DNA of 64,000 nucleotides, taken from positions 224,001 through 288,000 of the forward strand of contig CAVSIV010000001.1 in NCBI GenBank assembly GCA_963728205.1, written 5' to 3'. Within the stretch, counting starts at the first letter, position 1. Every line of letters begins with the position of its first letter. The DNA comes from an uncultured Chloroflexia bacterium. Its GTDB lineage: Bacteria; Chloroflexota; Dehalococcoidia; UBA2979. Shown here one piece after another: positions 57,174-64,000 of the stretch. The notes below the pieces were generated by a model. That model had not been told where the DNA came from. It made no database searches and worked only from the letters and a program-made list of their open reading frames with translations. Position numbers and translations under genes: made by a program.

Positions 57174-58040
57174 CTACCCGCCGAGGCGATCCGGGCGCAG
57201 CCGCGCCAGCGAGGCGCGCACCTCGTCGAGGTCCCGCCGGTTGGTGATCCCCGCCCACGTCGCAGGCGTGCGGGTAACGCGCACCGTGAGCGCGCCGTCG
57301 TGCATCAGCCCGCCGATCTCCGTCGGTAGCAGGCACTCCGCCGACGGGTCGTCGCGGTGCGCGGCGAGGAAGGCATCGAAGCGCGGTCGGAGCGCGTCGA
57401 AGATCGACGCGTCGAAGCCCCAGAGGTTCATCGACACCGGCGTCGCCGGGTCGAGCGGAGGGCCGCCGGGCGCGGCGATGGCGCCGTCCGGGCGCCGCGC
57501 GACGCCGTGCGTCTCGGTCAGCGCCGCGAGCACGCCGTCGCGCACGTCGCACACGCCGCGCGACACCGCGCCCTCGGGCGGCACGGTGTGCCCGAGCTCG
57601 AAGGCGACGAGCACCGCGGTTCGGGCGTCGACGGCGTCCAGGGCGCCGACCGCGGCGCCGATCGCCGCGCCGTAGTAGTCGTCCGCGTTGGCGAGCACGA
57701 ACGGGCCGTCGACGGCGGCCGCGGCAGCGAGGACGGCATGCGTCGTGCCCCACGGCTTCGCGCGCGGCGGCGGCAGCTCGTCCTGGTTCACGAGCGTGAG
57801 CGCAGGTGCATCGCGGCGGCCGGCGAGCAACGCCTCGACGTGCCCGCGGACGGCGTCGTGGATCTCGCGGCGCACGATCAGCACGACGTGCCCGACGCCG
57901 GCCGTCACCGCGTCGTGGATCGTGTAGTCGACGATCGCCTCGCCGTGCGGGCCCACGGCTTCGAGCTGCTTGAGGCCGCCGAAGCGCGAGCCGAGGCCGG
58001 CCGCCATCACCACGAGCGCGCGCCGGGCCGCGAACGTCAT
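57174..58040 (-). CDS. Nucleotidyltransferase (NDP-sugar synthase-like)
   Basis: MAAGLGSRFGGLKQ, KPWGT, NADDYYG, SRGVC, SMNLWGF. Confidence 0.9.
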   Translation of the reverse strand: MTFAARRALVVMAAGLGSRFGGLKQLEAVGPHGEAIVDYTIHDAVTAGVGHVVLIVRREIHDAVRGHVEALLAGRRDAPALTLVNQDELPPPRAKPWGTTHAVLAAAAAVDGPFVLANADDYYGAAIGAAVGALDAVDARTAVLVAFELGHTVPPEGAVSRGVCDVRDGVLAALTETHGVARRPDGAIAAPGGPPLDPATPVSMNLWGFDASIFDALRPRFDAFLAAHRDDPSAECLLPTEIGGLMHDGALTVRVTRTPATWAGITNRRDLDEVRASLARLRPDRLGG

Positions 58041-58167
58041 GCGCTGAGGTTCGCGGCCGTGCGCGCTAGCCGCCACCGCCGCGGCCCTCTGTTCGAGCGG
58101 CAGCCGGGTGGGTGCCGATCCCGCTCGCCCCTGGCTAGGATGCGAGCACCACGACGGGAGCCGCCGC

Positions 58168-58806
58168 ATGACGGGCGAGCCAGCACGCCACAGCGCCGTC
58201 GCGATCACGCGCGCCTACGCCGGCGACGCCGCCGCCTACGCGGCGTTCAATGCCGACCGCTCGTTCGCCGAGCCGCTGCTCGACCTGCTCGCGGCCGCGC
58301 TCCCGCCGGGCGGCGCCGTCGTGGATCTCGGCTGCGGCCCCGGCTGGGAGACCGCCGCGCTCGCGCGCCGCGGCCTGCGCGCGCTCGGCCTCGACCTCAC
58401 GCGCGACTTCGTCGCCTTCGCCGCGCGCGAGCACCCCGCCGCCGGCTGCGTGCAGGGCGACTTCCTCGCCCTGCCGTTCGCGGACGGCGCGCTCGACGGT
58501 GCGTGGGCATGCTCCTCGCTCGTCCACCTGCCGAGCGCGCGCGTCGACGACGCCCTCGCCGAGATCCGCCGCGTGCTGCGACCCGGGGGCGCGTTCTTCG
58601 CGTCGATGCAGGCCGGCGCCACGGAGGGCGAGATCCCCAGCGTGAGCTTCCCCGGCAAGCGCTACCACTACGCGTTCTACGACCCGGCGGACTGGCGGGC
58701 GCGCCTCGAGCGCGCCGGCTTCGCGGTGCTCTCGTGGAACGAGCACCCGGGGACGACGAACCCGGGGGCGACCGGCTGGATCGAGTCGCTCGTCCGCCGG
58801 ACCTGA
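58168..58806 (+). CDS. Class I SAM-dependent methyltransferase
   Basis: VDLGCGPG, GDFLALPF, EIRRVLRPGG. Confidence 0.9.
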   Translation: MTGEPARHSAVAITRAYAGDAAAYAAFNADRSFAEPLLDLLAAALPPGGAVVDLGCGPGWETAALARRGLRALGLDLTRDFVAFAAREHPAAGCVQGDFLALPFADGALDGAWACSSLVHLPSARVDDALAEIRRVLRPGGAFFASMQAGATEGEIPSVSFPGKRYHYAFYDPADWRARLERAGFAVLSWNEHPGTTNPGATGWIESLVRRT

Positions 58807-58895
58807 GCGGGGCGCGCGGGGTGCGCGCGCCCGGTATGCTGCGTCGACGCGGCCGCGGGCGGCCGCGAGCGCGCGTCCGAACCCGCGGAGTGACG

Positions 58896-59588
58896 ATGGA
58901 CTCTCTCGACGTGATCCGCGCCCGTCTCGGCAAGATGACGGAGCGCATCCTCTTCCGCCTCGCCGACCGCGCGGGCTTCCCGCTCAACGCCGCGGTCTAC
59001 GAGCCGGGCGCCGTGCCGATCGTCGGCCGCGCCGGCGTCTCGTTCATGGAATTCGCCGTCGAGGGCCTCGAGGCCTATCACGCATCGCTCGGCCGCTACG
59101 AGTACCCCGACCAGCACGCGCTGACGCGCGCCGCGCGCCCGAACTCCGCCGCGCGTCGCGAGATCGGCGTGCCGGCGCTGCCGCACGTCGACATCGACCT
59201 CAAGGACCGCCTCTTCCGCTTCTACCGGGACGACGTCCTGCCGCGCCTGTGTGCGCCGGAGGCCGACCCGAACACCTACGGCGAGACGGCCTACCTGGAC
59301 GCGGACGTACTCGAGTTGATCCACGAGCGGATCAACCTGGGCCGCTACGTGGCACGCGCGAAGTTCGAGACGACGCCGCAGATGCGCGACCCGTCCCTCT
59401 CCGCCGAGCTGTTGATTGCGCTGTTGCGCGACCCGGCGCAGGAGGAGCGCATCCTCGCCGGCGTGCGGCGCGACGCGCAGCGCTACGGCGTCGACGTTGC
59501 GGTCGCCGAGCGCGTGTTCCGGTGGATCATCGAGCAGACGATCGACGTCGAGGTGGCGTACCTGCGTGCGCTGCCGTCGCTGACGTAG
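58896..59588 (+). CDS. Monofunctional chorismate mutase, eukaryote-type (Aro7/AroQ-beta)
   Basis: Colinear with yeast Aro7 as recalled: LDVIRARL, ILFRLADRAGF, VYEPG, SFMEF, HASLGRYEYPD, NTYGETA, ERINLGRYVARAKF, QEERIL, YGVD, TIDVEVAYL. Confidence 0.85.
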   Translation: MDSLDVIRARLGKMTERILFRLADRAGFPLNAAVYEPGAVPIVGRAGVSFMEFAVEGLEAYHASLGRYEYPDQHALTRAARPNSAARREIGVPALPHVDIDLKDRLFRFYRDDVLPRLCAPEADPNTYGETAYLDADVLELIHERINLGRYVARAKFETTPQMRDPSLSAELLIALLRDPAQEERILAGVRRDAQRYGVDVAVAERVFRWIIEQTIDVEVAYLRALPSLT

Positions 59589-59605
59589 CGCGACACCCGT
59601 TTCCG

Positions 59606-59635
59606 TTGACATAGGATCCCGCCCCCCCGTACCGT
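59606..59635 (+). promoter_or_regulatory. Sigma70-type promoter of the trp leader
   Basis: TTGACA-N18-TACCGT upstream of the T-box. Confidence 0.6.
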
Positions 59636-59664
59636 CGGTGCTCATACTTTCGGCGTAGATGACT

Positions 59665-59953
59665 GACGTCGAACGGGAGTAGTACGCCGCCACGCGGGGC
59701 CCAGAGAGCCGGGGATTGGTGGAAACCCGGCGCCCGACGAGCAGCGGCCGAATGGACCCGGGAGTCTCGACCCGAACCGGCGCCCCGCGGGGCCCGCAGT
59801 AGGCGTCGACGGTGCGGGCGCCGTTATCCAGGCCCAGGACATCGCCCCCGGCAACGGGAGGCCGTGTCCCGCATGAGTCCCCCCGGCGACGGGCGGGAAG
59901 AGTGGGTGGCACCGCGAGGACCATCGCCCCACGGGCGATGGTCCTTTTGTTTT
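59665..59953 (+). ncRNA. T-box riboswitch with tryptophan specifier and intrinsic terminator
   Basis: AGTA, AGAGA box, GGTGGAA, specifier GAA-TGG-A (59753-59755), AGTAGG, CCGTTA, T-box GGGTGGCACCGCG, terminator GGACCATCGCCC/GGGCGATGGTCC-TTTTGTTTT. Confidence 0.93.
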
Positions 59954-59988
59954 GGGTGTGAGCAGACAGCGACCAGAGGAGAGCGGAG

Positions 59989-60117
59989 ATGTCGAACTTC
60001 AGCGCGCAGCATGGCCGGGCGGACCGCATCGAGCGGGGCCGCTGGTGGCGGCGCGCGCTTCGCGGCTCCCCCACCGCTGCCGGCGACCGCGGACGCGGGG
60101 CGTGCCGTGCTCGGTGA
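59989..60117 (+). CDS. Putative Trp-Trp leader peptide (42 aa) overlapping the trpE start
   Basis: AGGAG 7 nt before the ATG; MSNFSAQHGRADRIERGRWWRRALRGSPTAAGDRGRGACRAR*; tandem TGG at 60043-60048. Confidence 0.55.
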   Translation: MSNFSAQHGRADRIERGRWWRRALRGSPTAAGDRGRGACRAR

Positions 60118-61582
60118 GTACACGCCGTCGCTTGCCGAGGTGCGGCACCTCGCGGGGCGCGGCAACGTCGTGCCCGTCTACCGCGAGGTCCGCGCCGACC
60201 TCGAGACCCCCGTCTCCGCCTTCCTCAAGGTCGCGCGCGGGCCGTATTCGTACCTGCTCGAGTCCGTCGAGGGCGGCGAGCGCATGGGGCGCTACTCGTT
60301 CATCGGCACCGAGCCCTACCGGGTGCTGGACGCGCAGCACGCCGACGGCGACCCGCTGATCGAGGTCGAGCGCGAGCTCGCGCGCTTCCAGCCCGTACCG
60401 GTCGCGGGCCTGCCGCGGTTCCACGGCGGCGCGGTCGGCTACCTCGGCTACGAGGTCGTCACGCACTTCGAGCCGCGCGTCCCCATCGGCGGACCGGACG
60501 TGCTCGGCATCCCCGAGTCGTGGCTGATGTTCACCGACACGCTGCTCGTCTTCGACCACCTGCAACACACCATCAAGGCCGTCGCGCACGTGCGGCTCGA
60601 CGGCGACGTCGACGCCTCGTACGAGCAGGCACGCTGGAAGATCGACCAGCTGATCGAGCGGCTCGAGGCGCCGCTCGGCGCGCTCCCCTACGTGCCGTTC
60701 AGCGGCCGCGGCGGCCAGGAGGTGCGCTCGAACTGGGAGCGCGACGACTTCCTGCGGGCGGTCGCGCGCACGAAGGAGCACATCGTCGCCGGCGACATCA
60801 TCCAGGCGGTGATCTCGCAGCGCTTCACCCGCGAGACGGGCGCGCACCCGTTCGAGGTCTACCGCAGCCTCCGCGCGATCAACCCGTCGCCGTACATGTA
60901 CTACCTGCAGTTCGGCGAGACGACGATCGTCGGGGCGTCGCCGGAGCTGCTCGTGAACGTCGAGGACGGCGTCGTGGAGGTGCACCCGATCGCCGGCACG
61001 CGGCCGCGCGGGGAGACGCCGCTCGACGACGAGCGCCTCGCGGAGGAGCTGCGCAACGACCCGAAGGAGATCGCCGAGCACGTGATGCTGCTCGACCTCG
61101 GCCGCAACGACGTGGGCCGCGTGGCGGAGCCGGGCAGCGTGCAGGTCACGCAGCGGCTCGACCTCGAGTTCTACTCGCACGTCATGCACATCGTCAGCCA
61201 CGTGAAGGGGAAGCTGCGCGCGGGGATGTCGCCGTACGACGCGCTGCGCGCCGGGTACCCGGCCGGCACCGTGAGCGGCGCGCCGAAGATCCGCGCGATG
61301 GAGATCATCGCGGAGCTCGAGCCCGACCAGCGCGGCCCGTACGCGGGCGCGGTCGGCTTCTTCGACCTCTCCGGCAACATCGAGACCTGCATCACCATCC
61401 GCACCCTCGTGATGCAGGGCGGCCTCGCGCACGTGCAGGCCGGCGCCGGGATCGTCTACGACTCCGATCCCGTGAAGGAGTACGAGGAGTGCCAGCACAA
61501 GGCGCGCGCGCTGCTGGCGGCCATCGACGACGCCGAGCGCGGCGAGGGCGGCGGCGCGCCGTCCGGCAGCCTGGGCTACTGA
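60107..61582 (+). CDS. trpE: Anthranilate synthase component I
   Basis: DLETPVS, LLESVEGG (Trp feedback motif), GRYSF, NPSPYM, ASPE, PIAGT, EHVMLLDLGRND, GTVSGAPK; alternative start ATG 60011. Confidence 0.96.
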   Translation: MLGEYTPSLAEVRHLAGRGNVVPVYREVRADLETPVSAFLKVARGPYSYLLESVEGGERMGRYSFIGTEPYRVLDAQHADGDPLIEVERELARFQPVPVAGLPRFHGGAVGYLGYEVVTHFEPRVPIGGPDVLGIPESWLMFTDTLLVFDHLQHTIKAVAHVRLDGDVDASYEQARWKIDQLIERLEAPLGALPYVPFSGRGGQEVRSNWERDDFLRAVARTKEHIVAGDIIQAVISQRFTRETGAHPFEVYRSLRAINPSPYMYYLQFGETTIVGASPELLVNVEDGVVEVHPIAGTRPRGETPLDDERLAEELRNDPKEIAEHVMLLDLGRNDVGRVAEPGSVQVTQRLDLEFYSHVMHIVSHVKGKLRAGMSPYDALRAGYPAGTVSGAPKIRAMEIIAELEPDQRGPYAGAVGFFDLSGNIETCITIRTLVMQGGLAHVQAGAGIVYDSDPVKEYEECQHKARALLAAIDDAERGEGGGAPSGSLGY

Positions 61583-61593
61583 GGAGACGCGCG

Positions 61594-62535
61594 ATGCCCG
61601 AACCCGGCAAGCCCGATCTCGCCTCCGCCGTCGTGATGATGCGCGACGACGACGCCGTGCTTCTCGTGCGGCACCCGCAGCGCGCCGGTGAGGACGTCGG
61701 TCCGTTCGACGGGCGATGGTCGCTGCCGATGGCCGCCGTCGTCGGCATGGAGTCGGCCGAGGACGCCGTCGCGCGCGTGATGCGCGACCAGCTCCACGTC
61801 GCGCCCGGACCGCTCGAGTTCAACGACACGATCTACATGGTCGGCGGCGACGGCTCGCGCTTCGTCGTGAACGCGTTCCTCGCGGTCGGCTGGGAAGGCG
61901 ACCCGCGCTTCAGCGGGCGCGACTACGCCGACGCCGCGTGGGTCGAGCCCGGCGGCGCCCTCGACCTCGACGGCGAGCTCGCCGACGGCATCGCCGAGTG
62001 GCTCGCGCGCGTCTTCGAGCGCGACGCCACCGCGCTCACGCCCGACGCGCTGCTCGCCGCGCTCGACGCCGCGCGCGCCGAGCTCGTCGCGGCGTTCGAC
62101 GCGATCCCGCAGCGCTACCGCGACGAGCCGCTCGAGGGCGACTGGTCGCCGCTCGACGTGATCGCGCACGCGGCGGACGCGGAGGCGTACTACGCCGCGG
62201 AGACGCGGCGCATCCTCACCGTCCCCGGCCACGCGTGGCAGGGCTTCAACGACGCACAGTGGAGCGAGTCGCGCGCGCTGCGCCGCGCGACCGGCGAGCG
62301 CGACGGCGAGGACGCCGTCCGCGCGCGGCTGGCGCGGGCGCGCGCGAACCTGCGCGGGTGGCTGCGCACGCTCACGCCCGTCGACCTCGACGCCTACGGC
62401 AACCACCCGGAGCGCGGCGTCGTGCAGGTCGGCGACCGCATCGACAAGATTGCGCGGCACGACCGCGAGCACGCCGAGCAGCTCAGGGGGATGGCGCGTG
62501 CCGCCCGCGTGCAGGCCGCGGCTCAGGAGACATAA
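61594..62535 (+). CDS. Fusion of a degenerate NUDIX domain and a DinB-like domain
   Basis: GAGGAG RBS; VLLVRH...[23 protein letters not shown]; WSPLDVIAH...GNHPERG...[10 protein letters not shown]. Confidence 0.8.
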
Positions 62536-63130
<595 letters not shown>

Positions 63131-63229
63131 GCCGCCGGTCGAACCATGTTGCCGCCGGCGAACGGCTCCGCGTGAGCGGGGTGAGCCGCCGCCACCGCCC
63201 CGTGCCCTCCCGGACGTAAGGAGCGCCCC

Positions 63230-64000
63230 ATGATCAAGGAAGCCATCGCCGCCATCGCCGAGGAGCGCCGCGACCTCAGCGAGGGCGAGGCCGCCGAGGT
63301 GATGCACGAGATCATGCGCGCCGGTCGCGAGCGCACCGACGAAGACGAGGTGCGCGCGACCGAGGCGCAGTTCGGCGCCTTCGTCACCGCCCTCGCCATG
63401 AAGGGGGAGACCGTCGACGAGATCACCGGGATGGCGCGCATCATGCGCGCCTACGCGCTGCATGTGGACGTGCCCGACCGGCCGCTGCTCGACACCTGCG
63501 GCACGGGCGGCTCGCGCCTCAAGAAGTTCAACGCGTCGACCGCGGCGGCCTTCGTCGCGGCCGCGGCCGGTGCGAAGGTGGCGAAGCACGGCAACCGGGC
63601 GGCGACCTCGCAGTCCGGGTCGGCCGACCTGCTGGAGGCGCTCGGTGCGACGGTCGCGCTGGCGCCCGACCAGGTCGCGGAGTGCATCGCCCGCACGGGC
63701 GTGGGCTTCATGTTCGCGCCGGCGATGCACCCCGCGATGAAGTTCGCGGGACCGCTGCGGCCGCAACTCGGCATCCGCACCGTCTTCAACATCCTCGGCC
63801 CGCTCACGAACCCGGCGAACGCGAACTGCCACGTGCTCGGCGTGCCGAACCGGGAGCTCGCGGAGAAGCTCGCGCACGTGATGGCGCGGCTCGGCATGCG
63901 CCACGCGCTCGTCGTGTCGGGCTCGGACGGACTCGACGACATCACGGTCACCGGCCCGACGCACGTCTTCGAGATCAAGGCGAACGGCGTGACGCCGTGG
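63230..64000 (+). CDS. trpD: Anthranilate phosphoribosyltransferase (3' truncated by the window)
   Basis: AAGGAG RBS; MKGETVDEI, DTCGTGG, FNAST, AKHGNRAATSQSGSADLLE, RTVFNILGPLTNP. Confidence 0.96.
   Translation, partial: MIKEAIAAIAEERRDLSEGEAAEVMHEIMRAGRERTDEDEVRATEAQFGAFVTALAMKGETVDEITGMARIMRAYALHVDVPDRPLLDTCGTGGSRLKKFNASTAAAFVAAAAGAKVAKHGNRAATSQSGSADLLEALGATVALAPDQVAECIARTGVGFMFAPAMHPAMKFAGPLRPQLGIRTVFNILGPLTNPANANCHVLGVPNRELAEKLAHVMARLGMRHALVVSGSDGLDDITVTGPTHVFEIKANGVTPW

Follow-up and report, generated by a model that had tools for sequence, protein, structure and literature searches.

What is a short, tryptophan-rich reading frame doing between a T-box riboswitch and trpE, where the riboswitch itself would already report on the charging of tRNA-Trp? 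The question is raised by the trp operon of an uncultured Chloroflexia bacterium (lineage Bacteria; Chloroflexota; Dehalococcoidia; UBA2979 in the Genome Taxonomy Database, GTDB), which lies in a stretch of 64,000 nt that we call the window (GenBank assembly GCA_963728205.1, contig CAVSIV010000001.1, positions 224,001 to 288,000 of the forward strand); all window features discussed here are on its plus strand. Between 59588 and 60107, a candidate promoter, a T-box, a terminator, and a short open reading frame (ORF) led by a Shine-Dalgarno sequence (SD) follow one another in that order ahead of trpE. We consider it probable that the leader of this trp operon senses the charging of tRNA-Trp at two tiers: the T-box would act on transcription, and ribosome pausing at UGG codons would act on the translation of trpE.

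The first of the two sensors is readily recognized. A T-box leader RNA running from Stem I to the antiterminator occupies 59660..59934, where the Rfam model RF00230 is matched over its full length (1-219 of 219; 44.1 bits, E 1.7e-7) and a family-specific hidden Markov model (HMM) gives E 9.7e-68; no other Rfam family, the enterobacterial Trp leader RF00513 included, is matched at E<=1 in 58000-64000. The specifier loop reads GAA-UGG-A (59750-59756), with its UGG (59753-59755) aligned to the specifier position of the RF00230 model, and the same GAATGGA recurs in 65 of 68 T-boxes of the family. The T-box sequence GGGUGGCACCGCG is present, and its UGGC bulge (59907-59910) has its exact complement in G-CCA, the 3' end of the tRNA-Trp(CCA) that contig C1 of the genome encodes, the discriminator base being G. 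Residues 59899-59933 fold into an antiterminator of two helices with the canonical 7-nt bulge. Folding also yields an intrinsic terminator at 59916..59953—a hairpin (59916-59946) with a 14-pair stem and 3-nt loop, followed by TTTTGTTTT—at -27.3 kcal/mol (z -5.33; none of 200 shuffles as stable). The two structures share 59916-59932 and are mutually exclusive, while no second terminator-like site was found in 59500-60300, including none between 59957 and 60300. By these features 59660-59953 is a class-I transcriptional Trp T-box with a strong terminator, as a first-pass annotation made from the letters alone had read it. Control of transcription by this T-box, the first tier of our proposal, is thus suggested by sequence and by membership of the T-box family.

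This T-box appears to be the only one of its kind in the genome: a search of the whole 4.1-Mb assembly (G000) recovered it alone at E<=0.01, with none before ileS or any other aminoacyl-tRNA synthetase gene, a result to be read knowing that divergent high-G+C T-boxes score far under the Rfam cut-off. On the tRNA side, ARAGORN lists a second tRNA-Trp(cca) in G000, on contig C6 at 1288426-1288523 (minus strand); at 98 nt and almost all G and C, it is probably a false positive.

The second candidate sensor begins shortly past the terminator. An AGGAG SD at 59977..59981, 24 nt beyond the terminator and 7 nt before an ATG, opens an ORF of 42 codons (MSNFSAQHGRADRIERGRWWRR...; 59989..60117, stop TGA) that lies in frame +2 relative to trpE. 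Codons 19-20 are tandem Trp codons (UGG UGG, TGGTGG in the DNA; 60043..60048), the presumed ribosome pause site, located 90 nt past the terminator. The first-pass annotation had described just such an ORF—strong SD, consecutive Trp codons, out of the trpE frame and ending on the trpE start—and each of these elements is found where it placed them. The product has no Pfam match, and an ORF of this length is unremarkable by itself in DNA of 74% G+C (the value for the T-box match). It stands above chance because it is conserved in relatives, and not because of its length.

That conservation was gauged in the GTDB family of the window, represented by 99 species genomes in the collection used. At completeness of at least 80% the order consists of this one family alone (78 of 78 genomes), and the family census is a census of the whole order in the collection. 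trpE is present in 97 of the 99 genomes, and up to 600 nt upstream of it were taken from all 97; T-boxes were sought with an HMM built from 11 examples that Rfam matched full-length. A T-box lies within 600 nt of trpE in 68 of the 97 loci, and in 7 genomes from two genera trpS sits directly before trpE with a full T-box upstream of trpS, so that the trpE transcription unit contains a T-box in 75 of 97 genomes. For the leader, the best SD-led start codon after the T-box was taken in each locus, whatever the content of its ORF, and tandem Trp was defined as two Trp with at most two residues between them. Such an SD-led tandem-Trp ORF, with an SD comparable to that of the window, occurs in 62 genomes and 15 of 21 genera (56 behind a nearby T-box, 6 behind trpS), and 6 further T-box loci have a tandem-Trp ORF whose SD is weak or missing by the criteria used. 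All told, a tandem-Trp ORF stands directly before trpE in 68 of the 75 T-box units.

Do the relatives conserve a translated message, or merely a run of nucleotides? In 32 loci whose frame was taken from the SD and nothing else, the leader frame contains 93 TGG codons and the other two frames contain 13 and 6. The Trp patterns vary—WW, WWW, WRW, WCW, WSWWW, WWRWW—and are always whole codons apart, in leader peptides that are otherwise unalike between relatives. Over the 62 SD-led loci the leaders run to 34-50 codons. The first Trp of the cluster stands at codon 16-27 (median 19), 43-88 nt (median 50) separate the end of the cluster from the trpE start, Arg directly follows the cluster in 38 loci, and the stop is TGA in 60. 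It could still be supposed that the ORF is untranslated and that UGGUGG is conserved as an RNA motif or has arisen incidentally from sequence that resembles a T-box; a GGCTGGTGGCG stretch just before the T-box-type terminator of one relative (L022) lends this some color. Yet the Trp codons of the window lie 90 nt beyond the terminator, the SD and start codon keep a fixed distance while the frame stays open across diverged sequence, the enrichment of TGG is confined to one frame and to whole-codon spacing, and the leader stop is pinned to the trpE start. We regard the supposition as very improbable. Comparison of the loci establishes the existence of the leader, its frame of translation, and selection on its Trp codons, and it is very likely that the leader is translated and serves, jointly with the T-box, as a sensor through its Trp codons.

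The same comparison removes one argument made earlier for the Trp codons. In the trpE frame the bases of TGGTGG read through GCT GGT, codons that the first-pass annotation considered uncommon in this genome and took as a sign that the Trp pair is what is selected. The point falls away: trpE starts downstream of those bases. trpE, encoding a 491-residue anthranilate synthase component I (Pfam Chorismate_bind, E 2.9e-90; Anth_synt_I_N, E 3.7e-28), runs from 60107 to 61582, its start being set by alignment with relatives: the GTG at 60107-60109 aligns with an ATG start that in L002, L003, L004, L006 and L015 follows GAGG or GGAG at a distance of 6-8 nt.

In the window the leader TGA (60115-60117) falls inside trpE, giving an overlap of 11 nt (60107..60117). 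Measured from the first base of the trpE start, the end of the leader stop lies 4 nt downstream in 32 of the 62 loci, forming ATGA or GTGA, 8 nt downstream in 11, 11 nt in 8 (the window among them), and 17 nt in 3, so that 54 of 62 stops fall 4-17 nt into trpE. The stop abuts the start, 1 nt before it, in 4 loci; it ends 22-34 nt before the start in 3 and 41 nt after it in 1. The other off-frame served as a control; in 18 of 32 loci one must read more than 87 nt of trpE in it to reach a stop. None of the 62 independent assemblies has the leader in the trpE frame: it is in frame +1 in 32 and in frame +2 in 30. A programmed frameshift at hungry UGG codons into the trpE frame was considered and rejected because the leaders use both frames and no single shift would serve them all.

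The stop/start geometry also settles whether a sequencing error might have created the leader. An indel in the assembly could in principle have put ATG 59989 out of the trpE frame, ATG 59989 then being the true start of a TrpE with an N-terminal extension. The trpE frame of the window happens to be open from 59864, and same-strain reads do not span the leader: contigs from four DNA runs include one identical contig, spanning 59600-59858 only, and the leader region, 59989-60110, is covered only by the contig of a diverged relative (16 other letters, 8 gaps). Against this stand the out-of-frame position in every one of the 62 assemblies, upstream stops that close the trpE frame in L002, L003, L005, L006, L007, L009, L010 and L015, and the aligned ATG with an SD of its own. 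Both the indel and the N-terminal extension are ruled out by the stop/start geometry across 62 loci, and we give them next to no credence. An alignment of trpE upstream regions had been suggested as a check on the leader; in it the SD and ATG, the in-frame Trp pair and the stop/start overlap are all kept, and relatives retain the Trp ORF and show no conserved N-terminal extension of TrpE.

How, then, might the two sensors work together? When tRNA-Trp is uncharged it would pair with the UGG specifier and the UGGC bulge and stabilize the antiterminator, allowing RNA polymerase to pass the terminator at 59916-59953. Ribosomes would then load at the strong leader SD and translate the leader of about 40 codons. 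The direction and mechanism of what follows we infer. With Trp-tRNA plentiful, ribosomes would reach the TGA that overlaps the trpE start, and this wrong-frame traffic, along with the terminating ribosomes, would occupy the trpE SD and start codon and hold down independent initiation. With Trp-tRNA scarce, ribosomes would pause at the tandem UGG codons some 50 nt upstream, beyond one ribosome footprint, leaving the trpE initiation region free and raising TrpE synthesis. Such relief of occlusion is favored over other modes of action because tandem cognate codons raise expression under scarcity of charged tRNA; to our knowledge they do so in every studied case in which they precede a biosynthetic gene. 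We put its chances as the mode of the second tier at a little under even.

A paused ribosome could instead act through the RNA or through the termination factor Rho. It might block a structure that sequesters the ribosome-binding site (RBS), in the manner of ermC or of polycysteine leaders, or it might alter the loading of Rho on the C-rich tract. There is precedent for the former, in that passages of one report describe ribosomes stalled in a polycysteine tract as blocking RBS-sequestering structures (bioRxiv 10.1101/834739), and in 30 non-redundant representative loci the Trp codons are predicted to be mostly paired (mean unpaired probability 0.19). For the latter, the 3' part of the leader (60049..60106, which includes GGGG at 60097-60100 as a weak SD-like element for trpE) is rich in C and poor in G: the skew (C-G)/(C+G) rises from 0.03 ahead of the Trp codons to 0.28 behind them and stands at 0.12 in early trpE, a positive value behind the Trp codons is seen in 25 of 25 loci, and the genome encodes Rho (PF07497, 113 bits).

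The thermodynamic predictions give little encouragement to such a switch. A scan of ribosome positions over 19 loci gave no consistent sign that a ribosome placed on the Trp codons makes the trpE RBS cheaper to open (predicted opening energies go from 16.4 to 16.6 in L001, 5.7 to 5.6 in L003, 4.8 to about 7 in L008, and 15.0 to about 12 in L021), and in a map of pair probabilities by a k-mer method over the 30 representative loci the Trp region made no conserved contact with the trpE RBS. The window segment 60030-60125 folds no better than shuffles (z +0.98; 165 of 200 at least as stable). Within it, the first-pass annotation had singled out GGTGG in the Trp codons as complementary to CCACC at 60071-60075. 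This pairing is within chance: CCACC is found downstream of the Trp codons in 9 of the 30 loci, shuffled sequences average 7.3, and 555 out of 2000 give 9 or more. The folding proposed at the same time as a check likewise revealed no conserved switch. Nor is a ribosome stalled upstream of a rut site an obvious block to Rho, and we could not connect the C-over-G skew and Rho to a homeostatic mechanism. Action through RNA or Rho seems unlikely. The conserved feature left is position: the termination site coincides with the trpE initiation region, from which the pause site is at least one footprint away on the 5' side.

Several observations weigh against the two-tier proposal, relief of occlusion included, and deserve to be set beside it. 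The RF00230 score of the window is below the curated cut-off (gathering threshold) of 93 bits, and relatives in the same order score 37-67 bits; because all the structural features are met, we read these low scores as the mark of a divergent high-G+C lineage. The relatives are kin and not independent witnesses, the 68 leaders coming from 16 genera of one order. In the window, trpE has only a GTG and the weak GGGG SD, with a high predicted cost of opening its RBS (16.4 kcal/mol), so that by this model independent initiation of trpE there may be poor. Lastly, a stop/start overlap of the ATGA type is a classic sign of positive translational coupling, whose effect is of the opposite sign.

These last points bring forward a reading in which coupling is positive and nothing more. 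The leader would be a ribosome antenna that, through termination and reinitiation, supplies a trpE start which is weak or structured, and the Trp codons of the leader would be a brake; TrpE synthesis would need some charged tRNA-Trp and would peak at intermediate charging, making a band-pass filter together with the T-box. The 32 of 62 overlaps of ATGA or GTGA type and the poorly equipped trpE start of the window suit such a scheme. It would, however, be non-homeostatic, delivering less TrpE exactly when Trp is short, and an antenna alone leaves the frame-specific selection for 2-5 Trp codons unexplained. Moreover, most of the relatives' loci whose leaders were listed have a proper trpE SD of their own, GGAG or GAGG. 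Positive coupling by itself thus strikes us as improbable. We accord a similarly small chance to the leader being the obligatory route of ribosomes to trpE, with the sensors in opposition: the T-box would open as charging falls, and the UGG codons would throttle on a further fall. If true, this arrangement would put a biosynthetic operon behind a gate of band-pass or rate-limiting type; as far as we know, no amino-acid attenuator has been described as working by such logic.

In essence, the two-tier idea as first put forward, in which transcription responds to uncharged tRNA-Trp and trpE translation is gated by stalling or coupling, holds in part. The T-box and the Trp leader are conserved together; stalling and coupling, offered there side by side, would have opposite effects, and sequence cannot choose between them. 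Relief of occlusion remains the mode that we favor for the second tier.

Units with a T-box and no tandem-Trp leader comprise L013 and L138 (two Trp five residues apart), L018 and L143 (a single Trp), L128 (leader body deleted), L148 (T-box abutting trpE) and L129 (trpS, then trpE). No convincing leader was found in any of the 22 genomes in which no T-box was detected, which belong mainly to three genera (the loci read being AT-rich and the sampled genomes small) and to most of genus g15. Six loci from other families of the class have a T-box in four cases, directly before trpE in L025, L027 and L030, and a leader in none. On this comparison of loci the leader is an addition specific to this order. 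Where trpS has been inserted, in the order T-box, trpS, leader, trpE, the units are L011, L127, L130 and L131 of genus g3 and L147, L149 and L129 of genus g20; L129 is the exception among the seven, and in the other six the leader stays with trpE. Because it does so across the insertion, we regard T-box and leader as separable modules.

Two departures from the common plan merit description. In four genomes of genus g15 (L022, L156, L169, L170), Stem I of the T-box is lost and a remnant lies about 60-190 nt before trpE. This short form keeps a TTGACA-17-TAGCCT promoter, a leader of about 90 nt and a T-box-type terminator hairpin (GAGGACCATCGC...GCGATGGTCC plus a T-run), and the GGCTGGTGGCG stretch occurs in L022 only among the four; the fifth g15 genome, L148, has a full T-box that abuts trpE. 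In L128 (genome G055, genus g8), a leader start (ATGATCGAGCA, as in congeners) is joined almost directly to the trpE ATG; either the leader body was lost by natural deletion, or the assembly of this metagenome-derived genome is at fault.

Other amino acids seem to have no counterpart in this genome. A scan of G000 for short, SD-led ORFs that repeat one amino acid in a run and stop at the start of a long ORF returned 39 hits, mostly alternate-frame artefacts; it recovered the trpE leader and yielded no convincing analogue for another amino acid. One hit, on contig C1 at 504234-504335 (plus strand), is an SD-led ORF of 33 codons, five of them for Trp (..SWWWAPAWWAS..), whose end meets the start of a 360-codon ORF (VIVLERNDSFARETSSHNTG...), and it may itself be an alternate-frame artefact of high-G+C DNA.

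The surroundings of the leader are those of a trp operon. Downstream of trpE come, in order, a NUDIX-DinB gene, trpG and trpD; the first of these, at 61606-62535, is a NUDIX-DinB_2 fusion gene within the operon, between trpE and trpG. Upstream, a chorismate mutase (CM_2) gene at 58899-59588 ends 18 nt 5' of the putative trp promoter. Enzymes at the branch points of the Phe/Tyr and Trp pathways are thus encoded next to each other, and their control appears to be separate. The putative promoter (59606..59635), read by eye from the sequence, consists of TTGACA (59606-59611), an 18-nt spacer and TACCGT (59630-59635). A consensus scan did not call this site, its -10 hexamer having only 3 of 6 matches. 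Of the 51 family loci with enough upstream sequence, 45 have TTGAC[AG] no more than 75 nt ahead of the T-box.

It is usual to see a T-box and a leader-peptide attenuator as alternatives, each the choice of different phyla. Here both sensors stand in series on one biosynthetic operon, and the pair is kept across a whole order of uncultured Chloroflexota; a double sensor is otherwise described only for a regulatory gene of Bacillus subtilis, and full-text literature searches returned no description of a T-box plus Trp leader on trpE. Should the second tier prove true, the tandem sensing of that one B. subtilis gene would have arisen again, directly on trpE. A ribosome-pausing sensor would then also be workable by stop/start geometry alone, in the absence of a terminator or a conserved RNA switch, and annotation pipelines should expect translated leader ORFs behind riboswitches. 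The relatives provide a natural series in this respect: other families have the T-box by itself, this order adds the leader, and in two genera trpS has come to lie between the T-box and the leader that precedes trpE.

Known systems share individual elements of this arrangement. Passages of PMC1262725 describe classical trp attenuators with double or triple UGG codons and terminators in Corynebacterium and Streptomyces. The leaders described here resemble the classical type (E. coli trpL, RF00513) in having a short leader peptide with a run of UGG that is often followed by Arg. Unlike that type, they are followed by no terminator or alternative hairpins and have no match to RF00513; the leader reads into the structural gene, and control of transcription falls to the T-box. 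Attenuation at the level of translation is reported, in the part of bioRxiv 10.1101/834739 that concerns them, for leaderless polycysteine short ORFs of mycobacteria. To judge from that part, the likeness lies in high G+C, in pausing at cognate codons of an upstream short ORF, and in the lack of a terminator; by contrast, the mycobacterial ORFs block an RBS-sequestering structure, whereas ours are SD-led, sit behind a riboswitch, and showed no conserved sequestering structure. Closer in phylogeny, a Trp-specifier T-box before trpE is reported for Dehalococcoides CBDB1 and 195 in passages of PMC2494555. The Trp T-boxes of other Dehalococcoidia families differ from those of this order in having no leader ORF between terminator and trpE (none in six loci). 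Reinitiation at leader genes has also been proposed, in a portion of PMC4833913.

The nearest parallel is rtpLP-rtpA of B. subtilis, and the comparison drawn with it by the first-pass annotation was apt. In both, a Trp T-box with its terminator is followed on one transcript by a short ORF that has Trp codons in a row and directly precedes the regulated gene; a ribosome terminating at the stop of this leader would cover the SD or start downstream (here in the window and in 54 of 62 loci, plus the 4 that abut). rtpLP has 10 codons, three of them for Trp, and its stop lies at the SD of the downstream gene; the leaders here differ in having 34-50 codons with Trp near codon 19, and in stopping 4-17 nt inside the downstream ORF. 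Finishing the translation of rtpLP is said, in work by Chen and Yanofsky from 2003, to inhibit synthesis of anti-TRAP (AT), the product of rtpA. That gene encodes a regulator of TRAP, unlike the biosynthetic trpE regulated here, and it belongs to Bacillota while our loci belong to Chloroflexota; we claim no homology of sequence between them. Passages of PMC10327191 present the B. subtilis at (rtpA-ycbK) operon as sensing tRNA-Trp twice, by a T-box and by ribosome stalling at the level of translation. By analogy, rtpLP-rtpA is the best analogue of the leader that we describe, and the same logic would here be applied directly to the biosynthetic operon.

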